Origin: Mytilus californianus
Taxonomy: Eukaryota
NCBI RefSeq assembly: GCF_021869535.1
Contig: NW_026262734.1
Span: 40,088,487-40,152,486 of the forward strand
DNA length: 64,000 nt
Direction of reading: 5' to 3'
The notes under the pieces were generated by a model. That model did no database searches. It had not been told where the DNA came from and worked only from the letters and a program-made list of their open reading frames with translations. The translations under genes were made by a program, and so were the position numbers. This document shows, one piece after another, positions 1,698 through 34,201 of this stretch; the first letter of the stretch is position 1, and the number at the start of each line of letters is the position of its first letter.

Positions 1698-2042
1698 TTA
1701 TTCATAGCAATCTTCATCGTCGTCAGTCCGTCTTCCCCTCTTTGCTGGCACCATACCACCAATCAAACCATTAGCTGTATTGAACAGATTAATTGGTGTG
1801 CTACCATCTGTGATTAAGGTTGATTTCAGTCCAAGGGACTGCAACATACGGACCTGTTGGTCTGGTCCAGCGGACGCCATGGTTGCCAAGGTATTTGCTC
1901 CAATTGCATCCACCATATTCTTGAATTTGGTTGTCTCGATAGCTGACATTTCCCTAGATTTGCTTAGTTCCATTTCATCTTGTTCTCTCACATATTTTAG
2001 TTCTGCCTCTCTTGCTTGTGTAAGCCGTTCCAATTCAGATTC
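1698..2042 (-). CDS. MVP: MVP exon 12, terminal ([21 protein letters not shown]...[31 protein letters not shown]...DDDEDCYE*; TAA stop at 1700-1698)
   Basis: Acceptor tattttag|GAATCT. Matches the MVP cap-ring C-terminus [30 protein letters not shown]. The 12 exons sum to 2583 nt (860 aa) with all splice phases consistent. Confidence 0.92.
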
Positions 2043-2417
2043 CTAAAATAAGATTTCATATTGTTGTACTAGCTCTATCTTGAATAATAAAACTTGTCAG
2101 CTTAGTCGAGTTCTATGAGTAGATAGCATGCAATTTTGGTGTAACGTGAAAATTCTAACACCGTAAAGATAATTTCAGATAATAAAAGGACTGTACCAAA
2201 ACAGAACATGGGACATATACAAACTTGGAAACAGTACCATTATTAATTCTATTATATACTGAAATGATTCCAAATACAGTTTGTGTGTGAGCTATTCTTC
2301 ATAACTTCATCAAACGCAAACAGTAAAGCTGTCAAATCTGACTGATTTAAGTTTTGACCTATAAACCACTTATGCCATCAAATACCAGTAAAAGTTTACA
2401 TAAACCCTGCTACTTAC

Positions 2418-2661
2418 TGATTCAATTTTCATTGCCTGTGATTTCAGTTTGGCCTGGTCTACAGCTGCCTCGCCTTCAATCCTGGAAGCTTCAGCTCGAG
2501 ACTGTGCCTCTGCTTTAGCCTGACCAGTACTTTCTACTGCAGCACTGTTTGCCTGTAATTCTAACAATTGTTTCCTGGATTTTTCAGCCTCTGCTTCATC
2601 TGAAATCTTCTGTCTCTCTAATCTTCCTTTAGCTTCTTGTTCTAATCTCTCTGCTTCATGT
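2418..2661 (-). CDS. MVP: MVP exon 11 (cap-helix coiled coil: [82 protein letters not shown])
   Basis: Acceptor catcatag|ACATGA and donor GAATCA|gtaagt. 244 nt. Matches [46 protein letters not shown]. Confidence 0.92.
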
Positions 2662-3439
2662 CTATGATGTGAAAAGCAAACTTTGAGTAATAATGACGAA
2701 TGCAATCTTTATCAATTAACTTATGTCAAAGGAGGTTCTACAATTGTACCCATCAGTCTTAACGGACAGGGGTCATGCTAAAAATGTTCTTTCTGGCATG
2801 GGAAGAGTTTCCATATATAACTATTTTCGTATTAGTTCATTTTGGATGTATGATACATTTCAAGTTTCTCATGAAATGTGATATAATCATTTAAAAGCAC
2901 TCAGACACACAAACAGTCATGCTTAAACTATACATGATCAGTATAAAGAAGTTTTTTTCTATTCTATACAAATCCTTGGTGTACACCAAACGTTACATTA
3001 AAACTAGATCTTCAACTTTTAACGTTTACAGATAAGTTTACTCGGATGATATTGTTTCTATGGATTTTTTTTATCAAATTTGAATGTTCTGCAAACAGTA
3101 TACTCCGACTACTGAAACTTATCATCCACATATTGTTGGTTCACAGCCAATTCTACTTAATATGTCTATGTGTCACTAACGATGTCTATAATAGTAGATA
3201 TTTTGTATATCCTCTAGTAAGTCTACAACGGTTACATTATAATACTTCTGATGACCTAGCAGACATACAATGTCAGTTATCAGACAAATACATTCATTTA
3301 CACATGGCTGGTGCACTTCTGAATCAATTCCGAGGCAACAGTAGTTTACTAGACCTGGAAAATGCCTAGAATTGTACTTTTCGAATATGCCCCAGCTTCT
3401 TGCAAGTTTGTTTGGTCATAAATACCCAAGTTTATAAAT

Positions 3440-3510
3440 TACCTACCTTGTAACAGCTTCCTGTGAGTTTAATGTGCATTCAATGGCTAGCTGTACCGAT
3501 TTCTGTAGAG
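3440..3510. repeat. MVP intron 10 starts with a ~71-bp diverged duplicate of the exon-10 3' end plus donor
   Basis: On the minus strand, 3440-3510 reads CTCTACAGAAATCGGTACAGCTAGCCATTGAATGCACATTAAACTCACAGGAAGCTGTTACAAG|GTAGGT. The real exon end at 3519-3590 reads CTTACAGAAATCTGTACAGCTGGCCATTGAAATCACAACAAACTCACAGGAAGCTACTGCAAG|GTAAGT. Confidence 0.8.
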
Positions 3511-3518
3511 TTACTTAC

Positions 3519-3730
3519 CTTGCAGTAGCTTCCTGTGAGTTTGTTGTGATTTCAATGGCCAGCTGTACAGATTTCTGTAAGGCATCTCTTGTTCTCTGAT
3601 CTACAGGCTCCACCGATTGGATATCAATACTGGTGAATACCAAGTTGTTCTGTGGGAATCTAAACGTTCCTCGAACTTTTCCTTTCTCATCAAAACCAAA
3701 TACTGAAGATCTGATGATTCTTGCAGAATT
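3519..3730 (-). CDS. MVP: MVP exon 10 ([70 protein letters not shown])
   Basis: Acceptor ttttag|AATTCT and donor GCAAG|gtaagt, phase 2. 212 nt. Matches NSARIIRTAVFGFE...[37 protein letters not shown]. Confidence 0.92.
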
Positions 3731-4008
3731 CTAAAATGAAAGAATGTATTTCTTTTAAGCTGACTTTTGATTTTATAGGCTCCTACGTTTCTACAAATTT
3801 ACACATCATGGCTTTCAAAAGTTTGTGTTTGGGCGTTTATGATGTAGGTAAATCCAAAAAAGCGCTTCGAACACACTTAATTGATACAGTCTTACACCCA
3901 TTTAAGAAAATGTTTTAGGTTCCCATCATGAGTGGGTTGGAGTGTGCCCTCATTCAAATATCATTTTCCTAAAAAACCGACCATTTCCTGTACAAAGATA
4001 ATGCTTAC

Positions 4009-4351
4009 CTTATGGAAATCATCAAACTGTACTTGTGCTACGGCCCCTCTGACACGGGAGGCTATAGCCTTGCAGGCATCTCCAATGAAATCTGGTACAC
4101 TGAAAATCTTAGCAGCCTCTGCTTTATCTTCTTTGCTCTCAATTTCAAAGTGCCAGTTGTACGACAGCTGTAAAGACAGTCTTGCATGGTCAGATGTTTC
4201 TACAGTAATGATGTCAGTACTGAAGTCCGGTCCGAGAAACAAACACAGAGATTTAATAACATTGTTTTTCTTTGGTTTGCCACCAGAAAGGCTTAGCTTT
4301 GTGAATTGTTCATCAGGACCCAATAAAACCAATTCGGGACCAAAAACCACT
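4009..4351 (-). CDS. MVP: MVP exon 9 ([69 protein letters not shown]...[32 protein letters not shown])
   Basis: Acceptor cgttacag|AGTGGT and donor CATAAG|gtaagc. 343 nt. Matches the MVP shoulder domain nearly residue for residue ([29 protein letters not shown]). Confidence 0.93.
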
Positions 4352-4674
4352 CTGTAACGAAAGATTAAATTATTGTTTTATAATATAACTTGCATGTCAT
4401 TATCTTGTCCTACATATTGTTAGATACAACGATTAGTCAAACCCTTTCCTGAATTGAGGCTAGGAACAGTCAAATTATAATGACTACTTTTGAGAAAATT
4501 TTAATAATTTTTGTTTTCAGTTTACATCAAAAACATGAACATGTTACATGTTTGAGTATATATGTCTCAATAATATATCACTGTCTTTAAAAATGTACAA
4601 TATTTGATCATTTCTGAACGTAGGTTATAATTGAAAATTCCTTGAGGTATAAATTACAAATGTTATCAGTATAC

Positions 4675-4916
4675 CTAGCTTTCTTTTCTTTATAATCGTA
4701 AATCTGTACAGCAGCATTGTGTGGAACTCGGAACGTGATTACACGTGTTTTGTCTCGTGGTTTTGATGCCTCACTTCCTGGTTTTGGCCCTCTCTCGCCA
4801 AAGGCCTGTGGATTTTTTGCCTCTGCCAGCAGTGTCTCGACTGCAGGAGGAAGTTCCTTGGCCCATAATTCCTCGTCCTGATTTAACATGTAAGTTTCTC
4901 CAGTTACAGCTCTGAC
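4675..4916 (-). CDS. MVP: MVP exon 8 ([30 protein letters not shown]...[25 protein letters not shown])
   Basis: Acceptor ttttag|GTCAGA and donor GCTAG|gtatac, phase 2. 242 nt. Matches [24 protein letters not shown]...[24 protein letters not shown]. Confidence 0.9.
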
Positions 4917-5554
4917 CTAAAAATTGCATTAGTACTTGATATGACAAGGTAATAAATAATAATATATGCTTTAAACAATCAAGGTATCTAAGCTCTGTTT
5001 ATATTCAGTTATTTTTACAGACTAAGGAATGTTGCATTTGATGTCTTAAATCATTACTTTTTCACATTGATGTTCAATATAACTGCATTACCAAATATCA
5101 AACTATCAACTGACTTCTGAAAGAAAGATACACACATTTCAATAGACCACTTTCGAGTTCGTCGCATTGCCATCAAAAACTGGTTTTAGTGAACATCATT
5201 CGTGCGTTATGGGGTGTCGTCACTTCCTTCACATGTTGAGCGAGCGGTTGAAAAAAATATGATTCTATATTGCACGAACCATTCGGCAAATTAATTTCTT
5301 TTAATTGATAATCAGCACTGCTATCGTTAGGGAATTGTGACTAAGTACCTACGGAATAAACATTATTTCTAGTTTATCCTGCACATGTGACGACCACGAA
5401 GACGCTTGATGAACTTTAATAGTGCAGGGATACAGGCGATACCCTGTATCTGGTAAATGACGTCATAAAGGCTCGCATAATTGAAGAACTTTTCCGGTGA
5501 AGGAAATAACTCGAAAGGGGTCGATTTGTTGAACATAAAAACAGTATGACAAAC

Positions 5555-5704
5555 CTTTCCAGTTTTGATACATCTGACATAGATACCCTCATTTTCATCC
5601 AGTGGCAGTGCAGTTCTCTTCATGGTAACCTCTACCTCCACAGGTGGCACGTACTCTGCTGGTCCCCGAATCATCCATTTATCTCCTGGTTTTCGTTCTA
5701 TTTT
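5555..5704 (-). CDS. MVP: MVP exon 7 ([50 protein letters not shown])
   Basis: Acceptor ttttctag|AAAATA and donor GGAAAG|gtttgt. 150 nt. Matches [50 protein letters not shown]. Confidence 0.92.
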
Positions 5705-6147
5705 CTAGAAAAATAAGCCTTAGTCATTAGAAATATATATCCAGTAAAAACAAAATAAACGGAACACAGCAATTATAATTTGCATTAATACCACCTACAA
5801 AAAGAAATAATCGCAAAACTGTTTTTAAACAAATCAATATTTGCATTCAGACATTTATCAGTAATAAATGTGTTCCCAGAATAAGTACTGACAAGGGAGT
5901 AATAGAAGTAATACCATAGGCACTGGCCTTTGAAATTTTAAGCATATGTATACTAGCATTCAGGCATACTTCACGTGATTGCAATAACAGCTTGATGAGA
6001 AATTCTTTTTCACAAGCTTGGGTCATTTTCTCTGTTTACTTAGAATATTTTGTTTAAATGTTTTGGTATAATTACAGACAACCAATCACAAAACGAATGA
6101 ACGAACACGTGACCTAAATATTTAATAGTGTTCAGAGTTAAACTTAC

Positions 6148-6273
6148 AGCATCTTTATCAATGAATGATTCTGTGGCTCTCAGGATAACACCTTCATCTT
6201 CACCAAGTACATACACATTTTGAATTCCTCTCTCAAATCGTTCTCCAGGGAGTAAAAAGAAAGAACATTCACC
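6148..6273 (-). CDS. MVP: MVP exon 6 ([42 protein letters not shown])
   Basis: Acceptor gttttag|GGTGAA and donor GATGCT|gtaagt. 126 nt. Matches [35 protein letters not shown]. Confidence 0.9.
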
Positions 6274-6811
6274 CTAAAACATACAATGTGAAATGAGAAA
6301 AACTATTTACTGAGGAAATTAAGAAAGACACAACTGATTAAAACATTACAGTTAAATGAAAGAACAACCTTCTGCTATCAATTTATTCTCTTTATATTAA
6401 TAAAAATCAAATTTTCCCAGAATGTAACATTTGGATACGAATACAAAGACAATTACTCTTTTGGAGCTTGTAAAAATGAAATGCCCCCCACCCTATCTTA
6501 AGATTTTGTTTGCAAGTGTTGATACATTTCTGTTTTTTTTTCTCCATTGGTGTTTTTTTCTGGATTTTAGCTTGACATTCAAAATAATCATTTCAGTAGA
6601 TGTCAATAAATTAGCTGCTTTTTTTACATCCTACATTACATCAGGGTGCTTTGGCCACGGTTAAAACTACCCCTATTTACATAAACCCGTTTCATCTTGT
6701 CAACTTAGTAATGTCATACTTAATATCATCTAATAGCTCAAAGACATGCCTTTGATTAACCTCGGTAGTACAGTACATTACCTCTGCTAGGTCATGAAAA
6801 AATTAATTTAC

Positions 6812-6922
6812 CTTTACTAATTTCTTTCTACCAAGCTGTAGTCTGCCATGTTCATCGGAAGGATCAAGGATGATACAATATTGTCTAGAGGTTAGTGTGG
6901 TGATGTTCACGACTCCGACAAC
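6812..6922 (-). CDS. MVP: MVP exon 5 (VVGVVNITTLTSRQYCIILDPSDEHGRLQLGRKKLVK)
   Basis: Acceptor ttttcag|GTTGTC and donor GTAAAG|gtaaat. 111 nt. Matches [38 protein letters not shown]. Confidence 0.9.
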
Positions 6923-7430
6923 CTGAAAAATCAACATATAACCGTCATGGTCTTTATGGTTTATCAGAAAACTAGGAAACTTTTCCTCAGCAGTAACAAC
7001 TATTTCTTTTCAGTAGGCGATTAGTTTCAGTTTTCCTAATACATTGGCCTTACTAAACCATCGAGGCACTAGTAACTATGAAGACTCTGGATTAACCCGT
7101 TTTGGACATAGCAGTTTTGACGTATTTGACGGAATAAACCAAAGTGTGAAAAAAAGTTTTGCTTGATTTGTTTGTTCCAGTACACTTTATTGAGTTGTAC
7201 TCAAATCGTTCAAATTTACAAATATTCTAATCTCTATTTGACTCAATTGGTACTTTTCTAGAGCAGTACTTCTTAACCTAGTCTGAACTGTATCTAGGAT
7301 GGATCTCCAAAAACACTCAACCAAAGAGAAGATGTGTTCTCCAAAAAGAGTTTTCCTTCATTAAGCGCAAATAATAATAGTTGGTCATTCCATATTCCAT
7401 TTCATGTTAAACCACTTATTTAAATCCAGT

Positions 7431-7544
7431 ACATACCTCTTCATACACATTAGGTATGTGTGTTTATTATTACACCAGTAAGGAACATACCTCTACATAC
7501 ACATTAGGTATGTGTGTTAATTATTACACCAGTAAGGCACATAC
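7431..7544. repeat. MVP intron 4 starts with two 54-bp tandem copies of [last 22 nt of exon 4 + GTATGT donor + 26 nt of intron]
   Basis: Three units at 7431, 7485 and 7539 read ACATACCTCT(T/A)CATACACATTAGGTATGTGTGTT... The third overlaps the real exon end at 7545. Each intronic copy carries an intact GAG|GTATGT on the minus strand. Confidence 0.85.
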
Positions 7545-7670
7545 CTCTTCATACACATTAGGTATGTGTGTTTCTGTGTCGGTCATTTTGATCAACCATT
7601 CCTCTCCGTTCTTCCTGGTTACACCAAAGTCATCTTTAAATGTTCTCAATGATATCATATGAAGGGCTTT
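7545..7670 (-). CDS. MVP: MVP exon 4 (KALHMISLRTFKDDFGVTRKNGEEWLIKMTDTETHIPNVYEE)
   Basis: Acceptor ttatcttgcag|AAAGCC and donor GAAGAG|gtatgt. 126 nt. Matches the MVP segment [40 protein letters not shown]. Confidence 0.9.
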
Positions 7671-8242
7671 CTGCAAGATAACACCATACATTTTAATGCT
7701 GACTAATGTCTTGTACCTTATTAAAATGGTGATCAATTATGTCAAATTAACTTTAATGAGTAGTAAATTGTTTGTTTCAATTATGTTGCATTTTCGTTCT
7801 GTCTGTTATCTAATATCTTAAGGATACTAGTGTTTGATCTTTTTTTTCCGTCCACAATTTACAATGCAATGTATTTAAAAAATAAATGGGGAATGTGACC
7901 ATGGGACACAGATGATGCCCCCGCTTGTATAATAACGTTATAAAGGGACATAACCCAAGAACGATTAAGAGTTCAAACAATCACATCCTCAAATAAAATT
8001 TTCATTGGTTGAATGCATGGAATGTTATCAATGCGTTATGTAAAAAGTAGTGATAAAATCCGGAAAATTGATAACTATCAAGCTAGCATCATAAGGGTTT
8101 TGACTGCATTAATGCAATCTTACCCCAAGAAAAACCTGAAACACTTACTGACTGATCATAGATCTATTTAGAACTCTTGCTTCACCTTAAAATATCACAC
8201 CTTATTTTTATTGCCACTTCATCTGAATGAAACTATATTTAC

Positions 8243-8593
8243 CTTATCTGTTAAAACATAAGCGTTGACAACATCTACGACTTCTTCATAAGCTCCTGGG
8301 AGGTAAGCTCCAGTCTTCTTTACCAGCCATTCCTCACCAGTTACCCTAGCAACACCTTGTCTGTCAATAGTCTCCTTCCTAGCCCGCAATCTTATGGCCT
8401 GGTTAGGTCTAATGACTGTGGCCCTGACAGTCTCCTCAATAACAGCCTCCTTCCTTGGGATATATGTTCCTGGTCCTTCAAATAGCCACTCATCCCCAGC
8501 TGTTCTCTTTTCCTCATCATCATCTTCAAAGTCAAGAATAGCTCTGAGACGAAGAGCTGAGTTGGCTGCTACCACTTTCAGGGCGGTTACAAC
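8243..8593 (-). CDS. MVP: MVP exon 3 ([24 protein letters not shown]...[17 protein letters not shown]...[34 protein letters not shown])
   Basis: Acceptor tttatag|GTTGTA and donor GATAAG|gtaaat. 351 nt, phase 0 at both ends. Contains the canonical MVP repeat motifs [14 protein letters not shown] and TGEEWLV. Confidence 0.92.
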
Positions 8594-8870
8594 CTATAAA
8601 CAACAAGCAAGAAAATCAAATCAGCTGCTACCAATGTCATTAGGTTATAACGTATAAACAAATAGGGAGAAAATCCAATAAACTGCAATTACTTTCAACG
8701 GTGATACACCTATAAACAACAAAGGAGAAAAATCAAATCAGCTGCTACTTCATTTAGGTAGGCTACAACCAATAAACAACAAGGGGGAAATCAAATCAGT
8801 TACTGCCACTATTTTTTAGAGGAGTTACAACCTACAAACAACAAAGGAGGAAACTTATTGGTGACAACGA
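8594..8870. repeat. MVP intron 2: ~60-bp tandem repeat x5 whose unit begins with a copy of the exon-3 acceptor junction
   Basis: Units at 8585, 8646, 8706, 8765 and 8827 begin ACAACCTATAAACAACAA, the reverse complement of ttgttgtttatag|GTTGT (polypyrimidine tract, AG and first exon bases). Copies at 8706 and 8827 retain AG. Confidence 0.85.
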
Positions 8871-9219
8871 ATGGGTCAGCCGTGGAGGTGATATCATTGA
8901 AAGTCAATGAGAATTCATAATAACTTTCCTTTCTTCATTATGCTAATTGCAAATATTACTAGTATATCATGTAACCAATGAGCTGTAAAGCTTAAGATAT
9001 TAAAGTATATATACTACTTAACCCTGATCAGTAATATGTTACTGAAGATGCCCACAAGAACCATTTTAGGGGAACCCATGCCCAAAAGCTTGAATTAAAA
9101 CATCAAGTATTAAATGTGTATTTTCGACAAGTAATAATTATTCATTTACATTTAGTCTAACCACTATATGCTGTTCATTGCTAGATCAAATCTGGCACAT
9201 GTTATCACTAATATCATAC

Positions 9220-9415
9220 CTGTTTCAGTACTTCTCCAGGATACAAAGGGAAAGGATCCTGTGCCAATCTAATCTCTTGGTCAGCATGTACAAGTTTGGC
9301 CTGTCCACTTTCATCAAAGACAACTTTAGATTCTTTGTCCCTCAGTACCGGGTTTTCTACGATACAATAATGCCTTGGGGGTACAGTGATCATACGCTCT
9401 GGTCCATATACCACT
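9220..9415 (-). CDS. MVP: MVP exon 2 ([23 protein letters not shown]...[16 protein letters not shown])
   Basis: Acceptor tttacag|A and donor CAG|gtatga. Strong similarity to MVP repeat domain 1 ([10 protein letters not shown]...[18 protein letters not shown]). Confidence 0.9.
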
Positions 9416-9773
9416 CTGTAAATATCAATACACATTACATGTAGTATATCCAGCTTATTACGGTATTGACTTTGAAAAATATAACCTGATAAAAATTTAC
9501 TTTAAATTTGCCTGACCTGTCTTACATATGATATGCCGCAAGTCGATCTTGTCAATATTAAGTTTGACCAGTTTCATGGCCGGTAATGTAACATTGAATC
9601 TCATTTCGGCAGTGTACTCTGTCCTTTTGGTGTAATAAAAATCCACGATAACTTTTCCCTAAGGTTGTACTTCTGACGTAATAAACACACTAGTGTGAGG
9701 AAGATATACACTAGGACAATTCATTTACCGGAAATTCTACTCACCGGAATAAATAGGCTATAGTAATACTTAC

Positions 9774-9910
9774 TTTTCATTGTCTTGTCTGACAAATGTC
9801 TGTGGACCAATCTCAAGTCTTGTAACATTGAGATTCTGGTCTAGAACATGGAGGTAAAAATAAGGAGGGATTCTGTATATTGATTCATCTCCCCGCCTTG
9901 AAGTCGACAT
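9774..9910 (-). CDS. MVP: major vault protein exon 1 (start codon at 9910-9908; [46 protein letters not shown]; GTAAGT donor)
   Basis: Translation aligns with MVP N-terminus ([41 protein letters not shown]). The donor is AA|gtaagt, phase 2, and joins in frame to exon 2. Confidence 0.85.
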
Positions 9911-14900: not shown

Positions 14901-16155
14901 CATATAGACAATTTTGTTTATGTTAGAATTGCCAGGGTAGTATTATTTAGTGCTTCTTCGTCGCATGCAGAATGAGAGACATCATAGTGATTACTTGGGG
15001 CCTCATTACTATAATATCCAGCGACGCCGTCTACGGCGTAAACTATTTATTTGTTTAAAGCTAAATATATCGTAGGTACTTCGGGACATCACATTTTTTT
15101 TTAGCCCTCTCCCTTTTTTTTCCAAAATCCGTTATTTTTTTAGTTTTCTGTTAATTTCAATTATTTTTCTTTATATAATATATCAGTGACCGCTGTGGAT
15201 AGTAAACTTGGAATTGATAGAAAATAGCAAATACAAGTTGTTTCTAGTATATTTATGTTTCATATAATACAGAAAAACGCGAAAAAATTAAAAATTAACA
15301 GGAAAAAAAAATAACGGATTTTGGAAAATAGATGGACGACTGAAAAAAAATTGTGCTGTCCCCAAGTACCTATAAAATATATTTCAGAAGGTAGAAGACC
15401 TGGGCGTGTTTTTTGTTCTTCCTTATTGAGCCAGAAGATGTCCGTTTCTGTTTTTTTGCATTTGGAAGATTTTCTGTCTCTCTTCTTCCTTTTAGATATT
15501 TGATATACTGAGGAGGGGAGGTGACAGGAGGAGTTTTTACATATTGACCCATTCATTTTAATCTGTCGCTATGCATGTTTATATTTTTCAGCTCCAGCAT
15601 ATTCATTTTCAAAATCCTTCTGCTCCTGCCCCCGATTTGTTAGCTAAACTAAGTAAGAAAGACTTAACAAAAAATGTCATGAACACAGCGCTTTTTTTCC
15701 CAAACAATTTTCTTTGTTTTTACACTTGCATCAATGCCAAAAACAGAGCACACTGTTACAGGCGTGCCATTCGAGTGAGACGACGTAACTGAATTTTTCT
15801 AATAAATCATCGTAAACTTCAGTTATGTCATCCAACATAAAAACAAAAATCTGCTATATTCGACACCAACAGTGTTAAAAGTGGCGTTAAACACCAATCA
15901 ATCAATCGATCAATGGATATAAGGATATAATTTAAGAACATATAGAAGATTCCTTTAGCCTATATGACCCTGCTCAGTCGCTCTGTAATTCTCATATGAC
16001 GGCTTTGAGACCTGAGCAGGCATTATCAGCGACGTCATAATGTCGGAGGTGAAGTTATCAGCAACGTCACAGTATGTGAGGAGACGTTATCAAGAGAGGA
16101 TATAAGACCAGTAATAGAACGACAAACAGATTATCGGGGTTTTCTAAGTATAGAT

Positions 16156-19100
16156 ATCGTAGATAATCAGCCGCTAGACACAATGTGAAGCTCACTTCGA
16201 ACTTGTACTTGTAATGAGCAACATGATTGTTGCCACATGTGGAGCAGGTTCTGCTAACCCTTCCACGGAAAAATCGGACTGTCCCTCGTTTTTCGGTGGG
16301 GCTCGAGCAATTACTTTTTTACATAGTGCTTTGGGCTAGCTGTCGTTTGTCTTTTGTTGTTTTATCGTTTAATTTTTTTGCCATGGTTATTGTCAGTTTG
16401 TCTTCAACTTACGAGTTTTTAATATCCTTTTGGTACTTTCAGTTTCATTTTTTTTTGTATCAGTTTCCTTAAAAATCATTACTTTGTTCAATATTATGAT
16501 GATGCCAAAGAAAATCGTTGAAACGTCAAAGTAAGTGGTTAAGCTAGTTAAGAATACGAGGCTGGGATACAAGGCAGTGGTGGGTCCATTGGGGTCTGAT
16601 CCTTACTTATCTCCTCAGATTTGTTTTAAAATTATATGAGAAGTTTAGCTTCGAACTCCCTTTCTTATGTTTTTAAGGCTTTATGATTGGCTGGGGTATT
16701 GAAATATGGACACTGATGGGTTTTGTCCAAATTCAGCAGTAAAACGCACACTAAAGAGGGACGTATATTTTTGTATTTGCGGTATCTTATATAAATGCAA
16801 AGCTAAGTCCGTCGGGTCGGAGAACAATTTGTATGCTACATGCCCTCATTTTTCCCGTGGCAGTTAAAATTGCCACCATTCATTCCAGTAAACCCACTTT
16901 GCAGAACCTACATATTAGATTTAGTCTTAATTTATTCTCGTCTTGATTATAGATGAACTATTTGTAACTGTTTGTTAGGCATCAACAACCTAATAATCAA
17001 TAAGGTTTTACTAAGACACTTCTCGTAAATGGAAGAGGGTTCCCTTCATTTCTGAATTTTTTCAGTTTTTAGGTAATTTTTCTCAATTCTATATGTTTTG
17101 TCACCCTATTATTCTCTATTCTTTATATTTTGGCACCCAATTATTCTCTATTCCAGTTTAATTTTTGTCCAATTTTTCTCTATTCTTTAATTTTTTGTCC
17201 AATTTTTCTCTATTCTTTAATTTTTTGTCCAATTTTTCTCGATTGTTTAATTTTGGGCTCATTTTTCTGTAGATTTGGCCAATTTTTCTCCATTCTGTAA
17301 ACCCCACTAAACCCTCCATCATCATTTTCATGTTTTAAATTGTATAACTCAACTCCTGTGTAATTTGGACAATCTCTGTTAATTACAGATTATTTGTTTT
17401 TATTGCTGTAATTACTCAATATATCCAACCCATTCCTCCAAACCTCCAGAACAGGTTCCTTTAAATTCTGATCTTTTTCTGGGTCAATTTTATATTATCA
17501 GATATACTCTGTTTCTTGTCTGTTTATTTTTTGTTTATATTGGCATTGATGAAGAATGTGAAAGAGAGTCGAAAGATACCCAAGAGACATTCAAACTCAT
17601 AAGTTGAATACAAAACTGACAATGTCACGGCAAAAAACGAATAACAACGAAAAGACAAACAAATGTACACAAAACACAACATAGAAAACTAAAGACTGGA
17701 GCAACACGAACCCCACCAAAAACCGGGGGTCTCAGGTACGCTTTGACCAATGGTGAAAGACTTTATAAATTTACGCAGTTCAACTTGCTGATATAACGGT
17801 TCTAAAGAATGTATAAAAAAAATACCGAACTCCTAGGTTAAAAGGGGGACTTCCATAAAACCTAAGAAAACAAAACGATCGACTATATCAACCAACGGTA
17901 CAAGTTCTATTATTTAAAAAAAAAGAGTGAATTATGGATTACGTAAATCAATCAATACATTCCGTAATCACAGTGGTTTAATTTCGGTAACTTAATAGTT
18001 GATCGTTATGGAATATCTGTTTCACAGATGACGACGGATATGTTTCATCGGTTGTAACCACAACATACACAATCCAGTCCTCTTTTCCTCGAAAGAGACC
18101 TACCGAATTACACTTATCACTGGGTTTGTACTAACATGAGCAACACGACGGGTGCCACATGTGGAGCAGGATCTGCTTACCCTTCCGGAGCACCTGATAT
18201 TTATCAACCAACGGTACAAGTTCAAATATTAAAAAAAAGAGTGAATTATGGATTACGGAAATCATTCAATACAATCGGTAATCACAATGGTTCAATTTCG
18301 GTAACCAAATAGTTGAGCGTTATGGAATATCCGTTTCACAGATGGCGACGGATATGTTTCATCTGTTGTAACCAAAATCCCGTCCTCTTTGCCTCGAATG
18401 TGACCTACCGAATTATACTTATCATCGGGTTTGTACTAACTTGAGCAACACGAAGATCAACTTACCCTTCCGGAGCACCTGAGACCCCGGTTTTTGGTGG
18501 GGTTCGTGTTGCTCAGTCTTTAGTTTTCTATGTTGTGTTTTGTGTACATTTGTTTGTCTTTTCGTTGTTTTTCGTTTTTTGCCATGGCATTGACAGTTTT
18601 GTATTCAACTCATGAGTTTGAATGTCTCTTGGGTATCTTTCGCCTCTCTTTCACATTCTTTATAAATGCCAATATAAACAGAAAACAGACAGACAAGAAA
18701 CAGAGTATATCTGATAATTTAAAATTGACCCAGATAAAGATCAGAATTTAAAAGAACCTGTTCTGGAGGTTTGGAGGAAGGGGTTGGGTATATTAGTTGA
18801 GTAATTACAGCAATAGGAACAAATAATCTGTAATTAACACAGATTGTTCAAATTAAGCAGGAGTTGAGTTATACAATTTTAAACATGAAAACGATGATAG
18901 AGGGTCTAGTGGGGTTTACAGAATAGAGAATAATTCTACCAAAGCCAAATCTACAGAAAAATGAGCCCAAAATTAAACAATCGAGAAAAATTGGACAAAA
19001 AAATAAAGAATAGAGAATAATTGGGTGCCAAAATATAAAGAATAGAGAATAATGGGTAGCCAAAATATAGAGAATTGAGAAAAATGACCTAAATATTTAC

Positions 19101-19996
19101 AGAATTCTGAAATGAAGGATCCCTCTTCCATTCGAGTGTCTTAGAAAAACCTTATTGATTATTAGATTGTTGATGCCTAACAAACAGTTACAAATAGTTC
19201 ATCTATAATCAAGACGAGAACAAATTAAGACTAAGTCTAATGTGTAGGTTCGACAAAGTGGGTTTACTGGAATGAATGGTGGCAATTTTGACTGCCACGG
19301 GAAAAATGAGGGCATGTAGCATACCAATTCTTCTCCGACCCGACGGACGTGGCTTTGCATTTATATAAGATACCGCAAATACAAAAATATACGTCCCCCT
19401 TTAGTGTGCGTTTTACTGCTGAATTTGGACAAAACCCATTAGTGTCCATATTTCAATACCCTAGCCAATCATAAAGCCTTAAAAACATAAAAAAGGGAGT
19501 TCGAAGCTAAACTTCTCAAATAATTTTAAAACAAATCTTAGGAGATAAGTAAGGATCAGACCCCAATGGACCCACCACTGCCTTGTATCCCAGCCTCGTA
19601 TTCTTAACTAGCTTAACCACTTACTTTGACGTTTCAACGATTTTCTTTGGCATCATCATAATATTGAACAAAGTAATGATTTTTAAGGAAACTGATACAA
19701 AAAAAAAATGAAACAGAAAGTACCAAAAGGATATTAAAAACTTGTAAGTTGAAGACAAACTGACAATAACCATGGCAAAAAAATTAAACGATAAAACAAC
19801 AAAAGACAAACGACAGCTAGCCCAAAGCACTATGTAAAAAAGTAATTGCTCGAGCCCCACCGAAAAACGAGGGACAGTCCGATTTTTCCGTGGAAGGGTT
19901 AGCAGAACCTGCTCCACATGTGGCAACAATCATGTTGCTCATTACAAGTACAAGTTCGAAGTGAGCTTCACATTGTGTCTAGCGGCTGATAATCTA
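16156..19996. mobile_element. Foldback-type element: ~1.58 kb inverted arms (16156-17736 and 18479-19996) around a ~740-bp core carrying a ~300-bp tandem duplication
   Basis: Arms are reverse complements, e.g. the 81-aa ORF at 16227 (+) and the 102-aa ORF at 19621 (-) are identical. Termini are CGTAGAT(A/T)ATCAGCCGCTAGACACAATGTGAAGC. The subterminal motif TGAGCAACA..GCCACATGTGGAGCAGG.TCTGCT.ACCCTTCC recurs four times. No transposase ORF is present. Confidence 0.8.
17100..17290. repeat. ~32-bp minisatellite (TTTTGTCCAATTTTTCTCTATTCTTTAATTTT) x5 inside the foldback arm (mirror copy at 18900-19090)
   Basis: Direct reading. Part of the GGGTCTGGATGG-TIR MITE family. Confidence 0.8.
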
Positions 19997-21614
19997 CGTT
20001 ACATGCCTTCATCAATAAACTGACCGACTCGATTGTAGGAATTAATCCTTTTGGGACCATACATTGTATGTATAGCAGATGGATAACTCCATAAATTTAA
20101 ACAAAACTCAAATTGTCAAACAACCTCTGTGATTACGGACATTATTTCATATACATACAAAGATTTTAAACGTGTAGAAAGACATATACTCATTTGATTT
20201 TTAACAAATGATGTAGGTTTTTTTTTTAATGTTCAGTTTTGTATACAGCTGTCATTACTTAATCGATTAAGCAGCAAGCGTTCATGTATTCATTTACTTA
20301 GTCATAACAATATTGTATTTCAACGCTCTAACATTTTGATTGTCTCCGAGAACAGGTAATTCAATTATATATTCTTTATATTGTATTTATTCTTGAGATA
20401 ACTTCTCTGATGTGTGCTACATGTAAATCAGTCTTTCAATTTACGGCTGTTTGTGTAATTTTAATAAGAAGCACACCACCTATTTTTGGCCCCCATTGCT
20501 TTCTTCATTAAATTTTTTTACTTTCAAAAATTAAAGGGAAACGGTCAATTTACCGTTATTTACACATCAGACCGTACCGAAACTTTGGATACACCAAACC
20601 AGCTGGTACTTCATATCTGAGAAACAGGCAATGTACATTTTTGTATAATTAAAAAATATCAGTCAAATGGTGTTCTACAAAAATGTATTCTTCATGGTTT
20701 GATATTTACACCTATGCGTAGGAACTATTTTGTTTTAAATATGTACGACTGTTGGTATGTTCTTTTTGACCGGGCCCGAGTTGGTGGTGTAACAGCTTAC
20801 CAAGGAGGTTATAAGACTCCTTGGTCTTACGTAGTCTAGACGAATTATTTTCCATATACATACTGTATTTCCTGCTAATAAGTTATCTAACATATATCGC
20901 GATGTGCCCCGTGGTTGTCTAAATGTTTGTTTTGTTGCTGCAGTCGCATTCTTCAGTGTGATTGTCAGGCTAAATTACAATACATGTTTGATTTCTTTGC
21001 CTGATTTATTTATTGACATTACTCCATGGTTTTGTTCTTCAATTCACAGTTATGGCATGATCGTCAGTTTGCAAAGAACTCCGCTCAAACCGGTGCTAGG
21101 GGCCGTCTTAAACTTGCAGTGAGGTGAGAGTTTTTTGGCTCCTTGTTGAAAAACTCACTGTGACTTTGAGATGTTTCTTTGCTTTTTGTGTTTTTCAAGT
21201 ATTGCGCACATACTGATTTTTTGTCATGGATGGATCCCCTATATTTTTTCTTTTTTATTATGTAGTTTAATTCAGGACATCATAATCTTTTATTAGACCT
21301 TATTTATCCTTTAATGAACAAACATCTAAAATAAAAGCAGCGGTTCCATATTAAACATACCCTTTTTACATGATTGTTGAAAGTTTTGTAAATGAAAAAA
21401 AGGTGATGCATATGTTTAAAAGGTACATTGGACAACTTCTTCCTTTTGACTACGTGTATAAATAAGTACTTTCAAACCGCGCTGAAGTACGTTCACTATT
21501 CACTTTTCGCTATTCAAAATTCATGAAAAGTGAACTGGTTTTTTTTTGCACTTTTCACTATTCAAGTTTATTCAAATTGAATAACTTTAATATCTACTTG
21601 CATATATACAAATT

Positions 21615-21995
21615 AAAAAAAAATGTGGTATGATTGCCAATGAGACAACTCTCTACAAGAGACCAAATGGCACAGACATTAACAGCTACAGGTCACCGTA
21701 CGGCCTTCAACAATGTGCAAAGCCCGTACCGCATAGTCAGCTATTAAAGGCACAGAAATCACAAATGAAAAAAGAATTCAAACGAGAAAACTAACGGCCT
21801 AATTATTGTACAAAAAAAAAGCAAAAAAATAATATGTAACACTCCAAAAAACGACAATGACTTGGGACAGGCACATACATACAGAATGTGGCGGGGTAAC
21901 CATGTTAGCGGGATCCCAACCCTCCCCTAACCTGGGACAGTGGTATAACAGTACAACATAAGAACCAACTCTAATCAAAGTACTGAAGTACTGAA
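21615..21995 (+). mobile_element. SINE/MITE-like interspersed element (~380 bp), family copy 1
   Basis: Shares the head TGTGGTATGATTGCCAATGAGACAAC and the tail GACTTGGGACAGGCACAT...ATGTGGCGGGGT(A/T)AAC...CCTGGGACAGTGGTATAACAG with copies at 29540-29905 (-), 47380-47720 (+), 48040-48320 (-), 49185-49570 (+), 52230-52560 (+) and 53290-53640 (+). Partial copies lie at 56640-56780 (-), 57205-57330 (+) and 63300-63365 (-). Confidence 0.7.
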
Positions 21996-22870
21996 CATCG
22001 GATGACCGCAAGTTCTTGTGGATGGTCACAAGCACTTGTTTCAGATAAAAAATCACATCTCTATACCTGAAAGTGAGGTTAATGTACAGAGATATATTTT
22101 TTTCTGAGACAAGTTCGTGTGTGGATGATGAATACATGACAGGGAATTCAATTATGTAATATATGTTGTTAATTTTGCCATAGCATGTTTATGCTTTTGC
22201 AATAAAGATTCATTCATTCATTCATTCATTCATTCAACCTCACCGTAATAACTATTATATTGTAGCAGGTATATCTTAATATCTAGTATATATGTGTCTG
22301 ATTGTAGTGATACAAATCAGTATACTCTGGTTTACATTATATATTATATATTGTTATATATTATATTATATTATATATATTATATTAATACTTGTATATA
22401 ACAGTTGCATGTATATTTCATTTTCATTCATTTGTATATTATTCTATTCTACTATTCTATTGCAAGTGCATTGTGGACACTCTTCTGTAATAATTCGATT
22501 TTTCTAATAGATTGGATTGAATAGGCATTCATATTTTTCCGCAAAATGTTCTTGAGATATTCTTCCGCATGCGTTAACACATTTCTTCTAAACGAGTGCA
22601 AAGATATTAATGATTTTTTACTTATACAATGTATATATATTTCTAACGACAAAACATTTTCATATTATTCATTTATGTTATAGAATAAAATATTTTTATA
22701 AGTAATCATTAAAGAAATAAATTTATAACAGGCGATAAGGAATGTTATTTTGCACTCGATAATGTCCGCGTATTTATAGATCGGTTACCAGTCAAAAGCG
22801 AAAGTTACGTAAGTAGAAATCTCTGTTGCAACAATATATCGGAATGCCCTCACGGTCATCGCGATGAAAA
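21960..22870 (+). repeat. Dispersed ~700-bp repeat (second copy at 41805-42480 inside intron 1 of the VWA-CBM gene); this copy is expanded by (ATTC)7 at 22211-22238 and (ATATT)-type microsatellites at 22320-22440
   Basis: The pair shares long blocks, e.g. AATCAAAGTACTGAAGTACTGAACATCGGATGACC.CAAGTTCTTG.GGATGGTCA.AAGCACTTGT.TCAGA... and ...GATTGGAT..GA.TAGGCATTCATATTTT.CCGCAA... Confidence 0.75.
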
Positions 22871-23879
22871 AATCAGTTGTAAAAGGCTTAACTCATCAAA
22901 TGGATACAAATAGAAATACATATAACAAAACATAGAGTGAACGTGGCCGGGTACTTGTACATCCCAACAACAAAAAGACACTTAGTGCAGATCTGAGTGT
23001 ACTCTCAATTACTGACAGCTAGTTCAAAGCAAGTAACAACTAATAAAAAAAATACATCTAAGACTAAATTTTCAATCAATGCACATCGAACATGGATTTA
23101 GTGTTAAGATCAGAGAAAAACATGACATTGTGCAATGCCAAGATACAGGAATCGACAGATTGTAGATCAATGGAATTTAATTTATTGATAAAAACAATAT
23201 TAATACCAATATATACAATATTCAAAGAATTAATGACAGCGTTGAATTGGTAACCTTTTAGAATAAGTTTATTTAAAGGATCGATAAGTTGGTTTGTTTT
23301 GTGTAATGAATTGCTATAATTCGATTAAAATACTATCAGCTTAAAACGTTGAGGCCTAGTATTATATAGTATTAAGGTATAAAGAGATAGCATATTTGTT
23401 AGGCCTATCCCTTTTATCTACAATTAATTATTTTTTTACGTAAAATTCCACTTGATCGTGCATCTCAAATCCACTTATGCATATCTAGAAGCTAACGGTA
23501 CAATTCTCGCACTTAGTTTGTTACATATATTTCTAGGGGGTGGGGTCCACTTTTATTCATAAAGCATTAAAGTGAGCATTCGTTTCCGGCATCATTTCTC
23601 TATCGGGATGTCCACACTAATTGAAATCCGCCGACTAAACGGTACACCTTGTGTCAGGGGAGGGCAAAAGACTTATTATGTCTCTAAGTGCCAATAATTC
23701 TTTTCAAAATCTCACTTTCCAATTAAAAATACTCACATATTTACACATTTATATATAAAAAACATAGAAAAATATGAAAAGGCTATAAGAGGTAATATAC
23801 ACAAGTAATGAAAGTTTCGTATTAAACTATGGGTGTTTTCCTCAAGAAAAATCTAATAATAGCACTACCAAATAAGATA

Positions 23880-28620: not shown

Positions 28621-29539
28621 TCCATAACACAGATTTTCTATATGTTAGTGCTTTTTTTAGATTTTTCTTGAGGAAAACACCCCTCGTATTTTATGCGAAA
28701 CTTTCATTACTAGTGAATATTACTTCTTATAGCCTTTTCATATTTTTCTATGTTTTTTTTTATGTTTAAATGTGTAAATATGTGAGTATTTTTAATTGGA
28801 AAATGAGATTTAGAAAAGAATTATTAATATTTGCACTTTGAAAAATAATATGTTTTTTGCCCTCCCCTGACACAATGTGTACCGTTTAGCCGGCGGATTT
28901 CATTTAGTGTGGACATCCCGATATATGAGTGCTGGAAGAAACGAATGCTAACAAGTATCCTATCTCTTTATACCTTAATACTAGATAAAACTAGGCCTCA
29001 ACGTTTCAAGCTGATAGAATTTTAATCGAATTCTAAAAATTATTACACAAAACTTACCAACTTAAATAAACTTATTCTAAAAGGTTACCAATTCAACATT
29101 GTCATTAGATCTTTGAATATTTTTTTTATTGGTATTACTATTGATTTTGTTATCAGTAAATTAAAAGTAAACTAAATATTATTCTTATATACATATACAT
29201 TTTCATGGATCTCCAATCTGTCGATTCCGGTATCTTGGCATTGCACACGGTCATGTTTTTCTCTTACTGTTTATGACGTCTTTACACTAAATCCATGTTG
29301 GATGTGTACTGATTGAAAGTCAGTTTAGTTTTAAATGCATGATTTTTTTATTAGTTGTTATTGGCTTTAAACTAGCTGCCAGTAACTTGCGAGTACTCTC
29401 AGATCTGTACTTAGTGTCATTTTGTTGTTGGGATGTACAAATACCCGGCAACGTTCACTCTATGTTTTTGTTAAATGTATTTCTATGTTTATCCATCTCA
29501 TGAGTTAAGCCTTTTACAACTGATTTTTATAGTTCGTTC

Positions 29540-29905
29540 TTCTGTTGTACTGTTACACCACTGTCCCAGGTAGGGGGGGGGGGGGAGGGGGGTCCCGCTA
29601 AAATGTTTAACCCCGCCACATTCTATATGTTTGTGCCTGTCCCAAGTCAGGAGCCTGTATTTCCGTGGTTGTCGTTTTATGCTGTGTTACATATTTGTTT
29701 TTCGTTCATTTTTTTGTACATTAATTAGGCGTAATTAATTAAACATTCTAGTTTGAATTGTTTTTATATTAATATTTTGTGATTTCGGTGCGGTATGGGC
29801 TTTGCTCATTGTTGAATGCCGTACGGTGACCTATAACCGTTAATTTCTGTGTCATTTGGTCTCTTGTGGAGAGTTGTCTCATTGGCAATCATATCACATG
29901 TTCTT
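29540..29905 (-). mobile_element. SINE/MITE-like element, inverted partner of the 21615 copy within the palindrome arms (contains a poly-G run at 29571-29592)
   Basis: Reverse complement of 21615-21995 with indels. Confidence 0.7.
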
Positions 29906-31262
29906 TTTTATATACAAGTAGATATCAAAGTTATTCAATTTGAATAAACTTGAATAGTGAATAGTGCAAATAAAGTTCACTATTCATGAATTTTGAATAG
30001 TGAAAAGTGAATAGTGAACGTACTTCAGCCCGGTTACTTTCAACTTGTTCGCTGATATTTGTCACATCAATCGGAACAATGCGTTTACAAAATAATGGAG
30101 GTAAATATGTCTATTTTGTGTGAACTTCTGTTGTTGTGTTTTAATCCCACATCTATTTCAATTGTTTCTTTGTTAAGAAATGTAATTTTAATCTTATCTT
30201 GACTTAATATGATTAAAAAGAGATGTGATGAAATCCTAAAAAAAAACCTCAGACACTTAGAGGTTAACATACGACCATTAAATTTCCTTTAAATTACGAT
30301 TTCTTATATTTTCACAGGTATTTTGATACAAAAGTTCTACATGATGTGGTAAAATTTTGTATTTGAGCCACATTCGACCCTAAACGAATTTAGACAAGAT
30401 ATTTAGGTTTACGTCCAAAAATATTTTGATCTGGTGGATAATGTCTTTCTGAATCATTTGTTTGGATAGACATTCAAAATTTGCCCTAATCTGTCAAAAT
30501 TACTATTTTAAGCTTCCTTCGTGCGCTTGTTTATCTTGTTATAAATGAACTCATGATAACATTATTACAACCTAAAAGGTACACACATGAAGCTATTATA
30601 CTGTGAATTTAAGTAAAGGTTGAAAGAGCTTAAATTTGACTTTTTGAAAATGGCCCTAGTGCGAAATAAAATAATGTCGTTCTTGTGTAACATACATATA
30701 CAATGTGATTACGTTGGGAATGAAAAAAACGGAGATTAACCTTATCTTTTCTTTCTTTAATGGTAGCAATGAATTAAGACAGGAGCGGATCCCGGATTTT
30801 GAATGGGGGCGTAATTCAATAAAACGGATTATTTACCGAAAACTTTTTGGACGATTTCATGCTAAAAATTCATGTAAATCGTGAAAAAACATAAAATTAT
30901 TGTTTTGATATTACTGTTCAAAAAAAGAAACGCTTAGCTCAGATCAATTTTTCAAAACGCAAAATATATATTTTACAAGGTATTTTACAGGATAGTTTTA
31001 AACTTTAAATGTCCGTTCTTTTGATTTGGCTCTCTGCCACATAAAAGTTGCGACTTGCTAAAAGTGCATTTATATATGACCTTTTTCACCGCGAAATTTT
31101 GCTAACGTTTTTCACGAGAATTTTATGGTCAACTCTATTGTTACACTTTTGCGCATATAAGGACCAAATTTGAAGATTTAATTCATCACAACGTTAAAAA
31201 CTCTGCCATGCCAAGGTTGGACCCTGCTTTTTGAAATCGTCATCGGCTGTCTCTAGGCCGGA

Positions 31263-33074: not shown

Positions 33075-34201
33075 TTTAAAATAATGAATAAAGAATGTTG
33101 GTATTTATCAATTTAAAAAGTACAATTATTACCGTAGAAAAATTGTCAGAATAAAAAAGCTTACTTTTTAATACAATTCACGCCTAGTTTCAGAGTAAGT
33201 TGTGCAAAATTTGCCATTAAAAGTTTGACAAGAAAAGTTAGATCGGAAAATTGTTCATCCATATAAAGTACAAGTAACACTGGATGAGGAATTTAAGAAT
33301 TTAATAGGAATAAACATTCTATTATATTTATTTTAAGTATGCATGTTACGTTTTACACATTTTCAGACAAAAGAGGGATTTTGTTTTAAAGTTGCACAAC
33401 AAATCAGTCTGCAGATATAACCACTTTTAGCAAAACAACAAATTGTATCCTCAATTTGGAAAATAAAAAGAGGGAAAATAATGTTATGCCCTTTCCTCAA
33501 ATTCGAATATCATAAATCTTGAGTAAGATCTCGACGATAATACTACCCGGATAATGATGTGGATGGACAAAGGTTATCATTTCATTCGGATATTGTAACA
33601 TTTATCACTTAAAATACACATACAAAAATGCAGTTCACAACTCGTGTGTTTGACATAAAAGGGCTTAAGGTTGAAATTGTAGGAAGAGTTCAAATCATTA
33701 TCTTTGTAAAAAAATTACACTAAATAATAAATCATATTTAATTTTTATGTAAGTATACATCGGACTGAATATGAAAAAGTCTTTGTTCAAAAACCTAGCT
33801 GTACAAAATCAATCTCAAGGGTTGAGTTGGGTATAGAAATATAGTAATCTCTAGAAATGTCCGGTTCCAACAGTAAAACCCTTTCCTAAGCGTGGGATGT
33901 ATAAATTAACATTCACGTTGGGTCGGATGAGGTCCCTCGCGTTTACAGGATATGAATATCACTTGCGACAACTCTTTGGTGAAATATTTGCTACTGAACG
34001 TAAAGCGGGTAACATTCAATCAATCCAAACATAAACATGCATGATATCCAGGTGTCCTCATGCTTGTGTTTATAAAAAGAGTTAAAAACATACTTTTATA
34101 GGGACGTTGCAATGGTGACTCGCGTGTGACGGGTTTGCTTCCCTTCATTAGTAGATAACTAGTCGGACGTAAGCGGTTCGGCGAAGGGAGTACTTCTTTA
34201 G

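Follow-up and report, generated by a model that had tools for sequence, protein, structure and literature searches.

Anatomy of the locus

The window, the whole 64-kb stretch of DNA that was analysed, contains a palindrome of 3847 nt (16155-20001) with inverted arms of 1583 and 1525 nt around an asymmetric spacer of 739 nt. The locus is non-coding, repeat-rich intergenic DNA in an animal genome, presumably that of a bivalve, at least 6 kb upstream of the gene for the major vault protein (MVP). An earlier note had described the structure as a Foldback-type mobile element with nested MITE copies in its arms, a repeated subterminal motif and a tandemly duplicated core. The anatomy, the breakpoints and the identities of the repeats can be read directly from the data; X and W are repeats discussed below.

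16155-17737, left arm, 1583 nt, from blastn and global alignment
16209-16440, plus strand, outer X copy of the left arm, a short form that is older and ~70% identical to other X copies; motif at 16214-16264
16446-17042, arm-specific DNA, mirrored at 19113-19709 and unmatched elsewhere
17043-17300, plus strand, 30-32-bp minisatellite of the left arm, containing a 62-nt length difference between the arms
17544-17737, minus strand, inner X tail of the left arm, matching contig L002 at 568-761 and cut at ACCTGAG
17738-18476, plus strand, spacer, 739 nt: a 148-nt unique stretch (17738-17885), then two tandem units
17886-18201, plus strand, tandem unit 1, a 5'-truncated 3' part of X with the ORF end ...VDRYGISVSQMTTDMFH* and the motif
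18202-18668, plus strand, tandem unit 2, continuing unbroken into the X tail with which the right arm begins on its inner side
18477-20001, right arm, 1525 nt, from blastn; an X copy spans its inner edge
18944-19118, minus strand, 30-32-bp minisatellite of the right arm, a shorter array
19716-19947, minus strand, right-arm mirror of the outer short-form X copy; motif at 19892-19942
19997-20377, plus strand, repeat W, adjoining the right end of the palindrome and lying outside it

The arms are long and very similar, as the earlier note had it. With blastn, 16155-17737 pairs in inverted orientation with 20001-18477 over 1588 columns (90.9% identity counting gaps), and a global alignment has 1449 matches against 63 mismatches, with 84 gap columns, a substitution identity of 95.8%. 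The identity is uneven. Ungapped blocks range from 99% (302 nt) and 97% (573 nt) to 94%, 91% and 88%; the outer 435 nt contain 2 mismatches (99.5%), another 418 nt contain 18, and identity elsewhere is ~93-96%. The arms are collinear, with the older nested repeats at identical positions in both. The inverted homology ends cleanly after 1.58 kb, the two flanks of the palindrome are unlike each other, and the sequence has no runs of N.

Each arm is composed of one 30-32-bp array (~180-260 nt), two X copies, which account for only ~430 nt, and unique DNA for the remainder. Arrays related to the minisatellite occur elsewhere in the window (41281-41443, 56857-57066 and 60046-60139). The nested short repeats that had been taken for MITEs are derivatives of retroelement tails, with no TIR or TSD structure inside the arm; a search for MITE-like TIR structures within a single arm returned only the similarity between its two X copies. 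MITEs are smaller than ~800 bp, have short TIRs and a TSD, and occur in many copies; the structure as a whole differs from them, being 3847 nt long, with no TSD and no further copies found.

In the spacer, the tandem copies (17886-18197 and 18202-18482) are 90.7% identical. Unit 1 terminates in GGAGCACCTGA, followed by TATT, and unit 2 has a 20-nt deletion that takes out GCCACATGTGGAGCAGG. The core therefore contains the ~300-bp tandem duplication attributed to it but is not filled by it, as 17738-17885 is unique.

The repeated motif belongs to a retroelement

The motif is present at 16214-16264, at 19892-19942 (reverse strand) and at 18136-18186 (88% identical). It had been reported from both termini and twice from the core; three of these copies stand, whereas the fourth (~18441-18482) is only partial, with 20 nt including GCCACATGTGGAGCAGG missing. 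Its interpretation as a Foldback-like subterminal repeat does not hold, because the motif is the best-conserved part of an abundant repeat, X, present in 52 unrelated contigs (L001-L052). Five X segments of the element match these contigs at 67-95% identity. X copies have variable 5' ends and a common 3' end, ...CTCTTTTACA, and can be aligned over the motif and tail.

X, a common interspersed repeat, represents the 3' end of a retroelement with reverse transcriptase. In L007, L034 and L002, the ORF that precedes X reads ...GIPMGT..FRYIDD..KFYGRHHELVDRYG*, and the parent ORF ends ...FRYIDDV...KFYGRHHELVDRYGISVSQM*. This ORF has a weak match to RVT_1 (E 0.06) and more than 7,886 homologous proteins, some with PF00078 (RVT_1). 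A literature search for the motif, the peptides of the parent ORF and the contig accessions found no papers. The repeats of the locus are presumably typical of mytilid mussels.

Three rearrangement points of the window lie no more than ~15 nt from X position 570 (CACCTGAG). They are the junction between the tandem units (CACCTGA|), that of the inverted copy (|ACCTGAG) and, at CCCCGG, the 5' end of the copy at 53.7 kb. Among X matches in other contigs, 12 of 89 end at positions 558-583. In a search for a conserved RNA structure at the motif, alignment-based folding of 54 X copies (RNAalifold) gave only a 5-pair hairpin around CCACATGTGG, with negligible covariation.

Boundaries and further copies

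The inner edge of the right arm lies inside a repeat. A single HSP aligns 18312-18668 to L002 385-761 and crosses 18477, while the X tail of the left arm halts at the corresponding point (ACCTGAG), with unrelated DNA beyond. Since one X copy runs unbroken across 18477, this edge is a duplication breakpoint and not a transposon end, and the right arm is not a discrete unit with a terminus of its own.

At the outer edge of the right arm, position 20001 and the start of repeat W coincide within 5 nt, overlapping by ~5 nt. A random breakpoint does not account for this coincidence. A second copy of W (37552-37967) leads into a tandem array of 337 bp x 2.8. An extension of the outer X copy past 20001 into the right flank was considered on the basis of a 25-nt match (17954-17978 with 20122-20146) and rejected: the match is marginal (4 of 300 shuffles equal it), canonical X stops short, and the flank is repeat W.

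The absence of an evident TSD was confirmed. For the whole element and for each arm, the flanks match exactly over 3 bp at most; among 200 random boundary pairs the median is 4 bp. The junctions show no clear microhomology.

Within the window, the 34-nt terminus does not occur beyond the two ends of the element, and the arm-specific DNA has no other copy in the window or in 52 related contigs (284 kb). Neither the terminus nor a solo arm copy was found in those contigs, and the window has no solo arm. The contigs come from other, diverged sources, and only ~2.7 kb of the whole window matches them, so that these are weak negatives. Exact-pattern scans of viral and metagenome collections for the terminus returned nothing; the X motif, too, is missing from the viral collection, which therefore contains no relevant DNA.

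Coding capacity and folding

The structure has no coding function. All ORFs are at most 102 aa, and those of the arms are mirrored between the arms, in agreement with the earlier note. A protein search with the concatenated arm-specific ORFs found no homologues, and exact look-ups of four arm ORFs found no record.

Single-strand folding of the element, a check that the note had proposed, predicts -2618 kcal/mol with 1465 arm-to-arm pairs, compared with -886 to -1194 kcal/mol for three control sequences of equal length. Formation of a hairpin or cruciform, and of double-stranded RNA if the locus is transcribed, would be its only plausible activities. Rfam was scanned over the whole window at the gathering threshold and over 15500-20500 at E <= 5. 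Apart from a tRNA at 34192 and a pseudoknot match due to chance, there were no hits. A Penelope-like parent of X would be marked by a GIY-YIG endonuclease domain and by a hammerhead ribozyme in its terminal repeats; no hammerhead was found in 15500-20500, and no full-length parent ORF of X was recovered. With neither a hammerhead nor any other ribozyme in the scans, the idea that the ~310-bp tandem core is a retrozyme was rejected.

Origin of the palindrome

We consider the structure to be, more likely than not, a local inverted segmental duplication (a palindrome with a spacer) of intergenic, repeat-rich DNA. The arms are collinear inverted copies of an ordinary genomic block, older nested repeats included, and the ancestral context is preserved on one side, where X is continuous over the right arm boundary at 18477. 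The structure looks like a one-off inverted duplication of the ordinary kind. The right arm is probably ancestral, on the single argument that it is contiguous with the rest of the X element on its inner side, and the left arm is probably the derived inverted copy.

From this anatomy we infer an order of events and a mechanism at the DNA level. An X fragment (ORF end, motif and tail) would have inserted beside older DNA that already carried a short X copy and the 30-32-bp minisatellite. The 5' ~300 bp of the fragment would then have been tandemly duplicated, giving the units that are now 90.7% identical. Later, a block of ~1.5 kb would have been copied in inverted orientation 739 bp to the left, giving arms that are now 95.8% identical; the limits of the copied block would be X position ~568 (ACCTGAG) and a point within 5 nt of the start of W. 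The outer ~435 nt of the arms (99.5%) would have been homogenised afterwards, with gene conversion between the arms as the most likely cause. Copying most likely took place at the DNA level, through a template switch in replication or through break repair, and not by transposition.

The alternative closest to the earlier note is that of a Foldback-like DNA transposon, non-autonomous, low in copy number and restricted to one lineage. It would have formed once from an inverted duplication, and a transposase encoded elsewhere would then have moved it as a unit. The long inverted arms, the non-coding middle and the tandem array in each arm resemble a published Foldback layout (PMC4079207), and the negative copy searches were made in the window, the related contigs and the viral and metagenome collections, outside the source genome. 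However, Foldback elements have TSDs of 8-10 bp (PMC4079207), and none is present here; no second copy of the terminus or arm was found in the sequences searched; and the supposed subterminal repeats belong to an unrelated family of retroelements. The right end meets the start of W with a ~5-nt overlap, a sign of a breakpoint more than of a conserved terminus. We regard this alternative as unlikely. The broader claim of a Foldback-type mobile element is not supported, on the same evidence and on the position of 18477 inside an X copy.

A reverse-transcriptase origin is quite unlikely. A read-through transcript of X with 1.39 kb of downstream DNA would have been reverse-transcribed and inserted, inverted, beside its source, by 3' transduction or by snap-back or template jumping, as has been suggested for LINEs and Penelope-like elements. 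The inner X copies of the two arms are indeed head to head with their 3' tails directed outward, three rearrangement points fall within ~15 nt of X position 570, and the 12 of 89 X ends at 558-583 fit a template-switch hot spot in X. Yet the arms run 1.39 kb past the well-defined 3' end of X (CTCTTTTACA) into unrelated DNA, the left arm has no flanking TSD, its distal end at 16155 has neither poly(A) nor an X-type tail, and no hammerhead or other ribozyme was found.

False duplications arise easily in assemblies of highly heterozygous bivalves. Two divergent haplotypes of the locus, or a long read that is a fold-back chimera, could have been joined head to head, and the patchy divergence of 0.5-7% and the minisatellite indels do look allelic. 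A chimeric read, however, predicts near-identical arms and mirrored flanks, and the flanks here differ; the clean stop of the homology after 1.58 kb, the asymmetric spacer and the lack of Ns also speak against an artefact, which we hold to be improbable.

The earlier note had named independent insertions of a common repeat as the scenario that would overturn its reading. Two opposite-orientation insertions of the same ~1.5-kb transposable element are very improbable: beyond the similarity of the arms nothing specific favours them, and the arms are block copies with nested repeats in the same positions, the right inner edge is in register within a continuous X copy, neither arm has a TSD, and solo arms are absent from the window and the related contigs.

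Implications

The locus is mostly a warning to annotators. In invertebrate genomes dense in repeats, long inverted repeats can be mistaken for Foldback transposons, a motif common to 'termini' and 'core' can be merely nested copies of a widespread retroelement, and the mirrored short ORFs of such repeats are not to be called genes. If real, the palindrome could be prone to breakage and recombination, at a site ~6 kb upstream of the gene for the vault protein.

There is a slight chance that the palindrome, if transcribed, is a natural source of hairpin RNA that silences X, or that a young Foldback-like element has its first copy here. A hairpin RNA would have a stem of ~1.5 kb with two X segments per arm, could give rise to endo-siRNAs or piRNAs against X, and would make the locus a bivalve counterpart of maize Mu killer.

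Comparison with known systems

With Foldback elements (Drosophila FB, Tetris and Galileo-like elements with long TIRs) the locus shares kb-scale inverted arms, a non-coding middle and tandem repeats in the arms. It differs in lacking an 8-10 bp TSD and a detected family of copies, in arms that are a mosaic of unrelated repeats and unique DNA instead of element-specific subrepeats, and in having one arm boundary inside another repeat. The 3'-tail fragments of reverse-transcriptase retroelements (LINE/SINE-like or Penelope-like) are matched by the motif copies, with their variable 5' ends and common 3' end, and by the reverse-transcriptase motifs in the parent ORF of X; this likeness is limited to the nested X copies and does not extend to the 3.8-kb structure.

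Hairpin-RNA silencing loci can arise from inverted transposon duplications, as in maize Mu killer and the hpRNA loci of Drosophila. The present locus is likewise an inverted duplication with parts of an abundant mobile element, and could give ~1.5 kb of double-stranded RNA if transcribed, but X makes up only ~430 nt of each arm and the hairpin is a predicted one. Palindromes such as those of sex chromosomes are kept by arm-to-arm gene conversion. The uneven arm identity of the locus fits partial homogenisation, although the locus is far smaller and gene-free, and conversion is suggested here only by that unevenness.

Foldback inversions and DUP-INV-type rearrangements arise by template switching or hairpin-primed repair, for example in yeast (PMC7467729). 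The locus differs from these in its small size, its interstitial position and its fixation in an assembled genome; no priming short inverted repeat or microhomology is evident at its junctions, and the mechanism is one that we infer. It resembles them in its inverted adjacent copy, asymmetric spacer, non-homologous junctions and lack of a TSD.

Structure and predicted fold of the palindrome

The inverted arms lie at 16155-17737 and 18477-20001. Repeat finding and blastn pair the left arm with 20001-18477 over 1588 alignment columns (90.9% identity including gaps), and in a global alignment the two arms agree at 1449 positions and differ at 63, with 84 gap columns (95.8% identity at aligned bases), which bears out the earlier note's description of a ~3.8-kb structure with long inverted arms. 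The 62-nt difference in arm length sits in a 30-32-bp minisatellite. This AT-rich repeat forms further arrays at 41281-41443, 56857-57066 and 60046-60139, and is thus a dispersed minisatellite family.

Substitution identity between the arms (left-arm coordinates)
16166-16600, outer: 99.5% (2 mismatches in 435 nt)
16601-17018: 95.7%
17019-17105: 86%
17301-17543: 92.6%
17544-17737, inner: 95.8%

The spacer (17738-18476) is asymmetric, with 148 nt of unique sequence followed by two tandem units (17886-18197 and 18202-18482) that are 90.7% identical; the ~300-bp tandem duplication reported for the core therefore holds for these units, but not for the first 148 nt. No ORF in the element exceeds 102 aa, and those of one arm mirror those of the other, as had been proposed. 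The predicted single-strand fold contains 1465 arm-to-arm pairs and, at -2618 kcal/mol, is far below three controls of equal length (-886 to -1194 kcal/mol), in agreement with the suggested hairpin.

Apart from its copies at the two ends of the element, the 34-nt terminus is absent from the window; no further copy was found in the fetched loci, and no exact match in viral or metagenome collections. No second copy of the arm-specific DNA (16446-17540) lies within the window or in related contigs totalling 284 kb, whose only matches to the element are in its portions of the interspersed repeat X. These contigs have only ~2.7 kb of repeats in common with the whole window and so come from diverged sources. 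The arm ORFs had no protein-level matches, and exact look-up of four of them returned no record. Drawn from these sequences and collections, all of these negatives are weak evidence that no family of copies exists.

A retroelement repeat in the arms and core

A peptide derived from the motif of the earlier note retrieved 18 short ORFs on metagenome contigs evidently carrying animal DNA. Six contigs were fetched, and 46 more were added through a 21-nt motif pattern; the resulting 284 kb hold many copies of X, the repeat containing the motif. In longer copies an upstream ORF ends ...GIPMGT(N/K)CAPLLADLFLY...FRYIDDV...LYDKRDDFSFPIVNFPFL...KFYGRHHELVDRYGI(S/T)VSQM...*. Because this ORF has a weak RVT_1 match and >7,886 homologues, some annotated PF00078, X is the ORF end and 3' untranslated tail of a reverse-transcriptase retroelement, and the nested copies are members of a very large family of such elements, which may be LINE-like or Penelope-like. 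The literature yielded no paper with either the motif or peptides from the parent ORF. Copies share a 3' end (...CTCTTTTACA) and vary at the 5' end; many begin near ATGAGCAACACGA, giving a short form of ~225 bp. Five X segments lie in the 3.8-kb structure:

16209-16440, plus strand: outer short form, ~70% identical to other copies
19716-19947, minus strand: outer short form, ~70% identical to other copies
17544-17737, minus strand: inner tail, left arm
17998-18200: core unit
18312-18668: core unit

The outer copies, being only ~70% identical to others, are probably old. The motif had been placed at both termini and twice in the core; it is present at 16214-16264, 19892-19942 (reverse strand) and 18136-18186, but the fourth copy (~18441-18482) is partial and lacks 20 nt. 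Since these copies belong to the five X segments, the supposed subterminal repeats are nested members of a common retroelement and not Foldback-type subrepeats, and the reported hydrophobic ORFs are read from X tails. That the palindrome might act as a hairpin-RNA locus yielding small RNAs against X is improbable.

Many X copies begin or end at GGAGCACCTGAG / (A/T)TCACCCC, at ~558-583 of the fetched contig L002 (window 18190-18200, 18477-18485 and 53830-53836). X may therefore be chimeric, with the ORF end and motif as one module and, as the other, a tail of ~160-190 nt that is also found by itself; or this point may be a hot spot for template switching or alternative ends. A tail-only copy at 53667-53836 (in 53500-53836, minus strand) is joined directly to another common repeat at 53270-53629, for which one of the fetched contigs has a match of 83% identity. 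The self-complementary CCACATGTGG in the motif (alignment A3, columns 40-49) becomes (C/T)CACTAGTGG in about a dozen copies, a central change from ACATGT to ACTAGT that is still palindromic. The variant may mark a subfamily, or selection may favour a self-complementary site for dimerisation or protein binding.

Genomic surroundings

The window has 30-37% GC and intron-split genes, as in eukaryotes. Exons of the major vault protein (MVP) gene, itself intron-split, occupy 1.7-9.9 kb (1698-9910) on the minus strand; in solved MVP structures, residues 115-225 correspond to the exon at 8219-8575 (E 2.5e-58). As the start-codon exon is at 9770-9910, the palindrome lies at least 6 kb upstream of the gene, in repeat-rich non-coding DNA. 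A hairpin-type (MITE-like) repeat of ~316 nt, ~70% similar to its own reverse complement, lies ~0.8 kb to the left (15065-15380), and a 32-bp tandem repeat with GACGTCA (2.2 copies, 16023-16092) ~60 nt beyond the left end. Between 20 and 43 kb the sequence is a closely packed mosaic of repeats, with several more interspersed families directly to the right of repeat W, described below (21475-23000 resembles 29395-30035, 41810-42473 and 47354-49561, copies 71-92% identical); a tRNA gene lies at 34192-34264 (plus strand; Rfam RF00005, 40.6 bits). The next recognisable coding sequences rightward are plus-strand ORFs at 43801-44310 and 46072-46452, which, from translations read by eye, we take to be von Willebrand A-like and cysteine-rich chitin-binding-like exons.

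Edges and origin of the palindrome

Positions 18312-18668 align in one piece to 385-761 of L002 (74% identity over 382 nt), so that one X copy crosses the inner edge of the right arm at 18477. An inserted unit therefore cannot end at this edge, which is simply where the right arm ceases to resemble the left. In the left arm the X tail ends at the corresponding point (ACCTGAG) and unrelated sequence follows. On the simplest view, the right arm and spacer are ancestral, and 18477-20001 was copied in inverted orientation to a site 739 bp upstream, giving the left arm. At the right end, similarity between two copies of another repeat, W, begins at CGTTACATGCC and reaches ~5 nt into the inverted repeat (19997/20002-20377 against 37552-37967, 82-87% identity), which makes this end a junction with a different repeat rather than a conserved transposon tip. 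Nothing in the right flank corresponds to the left flank. At 37.8-38.8 kb W runs on into a 337-bp tandem array; the full structure (37552-38756) is a ~270-bp head followed by 2.8 units at 37827-38756, and the copy beside the palindrome (19997-20377) is a single head with a partial unit. W is absent from the fetched contigs.

In our view the structure is probably a local segmental duplication in which ~1.5 kb of intergenic DNA rich in repeats was copied in inverted orientation. That no TSD is present, that both junctions are non-homologous and that the spacer is asymmetric all fit a DNA-level event. The 5' part of X would have been duplicated in tandem first and the inverted duplication would have followed, an order suggested by 90.7% against 95.8% identity if both evolved neutrally; that the outer 435 nt are nearly identical points to gene conversion between the arms at a later time. 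The inverted copying itself may have involved a replication template switch or break repair.

A low-copy Foldback-like transposon, whose other copies would lie beyond the sequences searched here, is unlikely: Foldback elements give TSDs of 8-10 bp (PMC4079207), but the longest exact match between the flanks here is 3 bp (200 random controls gave a median of 4 bp), in keeping with the earlier report of none, and the subrepeats proved to be X. Less probable still is a reverse-transcriptase-mediated origin. X copies do lie head-to-head, and breakpoints cluster at X ~570, among them the tandem junction, the inverted junction, the point where the 53.7-kb copy starts (its 5' end) and the ends, at 558-583, of 12 of the 89 matches to X from other contigs. 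The arms, however, extend 1.39 kb beyond the 3' end of X, with neither TSD nor tail. An assembly artefact is likewise unlikely, given the differing flanks, diverged arms and asymmetric spacer; the window has no N runs. Two independent insertions are highly improbable, being contradicted by the continuity of X in register.

The structure is thus like Foldback elements in shape, and to that extent the earlier interpretation stands, yet it lacks two of their defining traits, the TSD and the subrepeats, and should not be filed with them. It behaves like other small palindromes or inverted duplications in genomes, ordinary features of a known kind; the closest model of a DNA-level mechanism is work on foldback inversion (for example PMC7467729).
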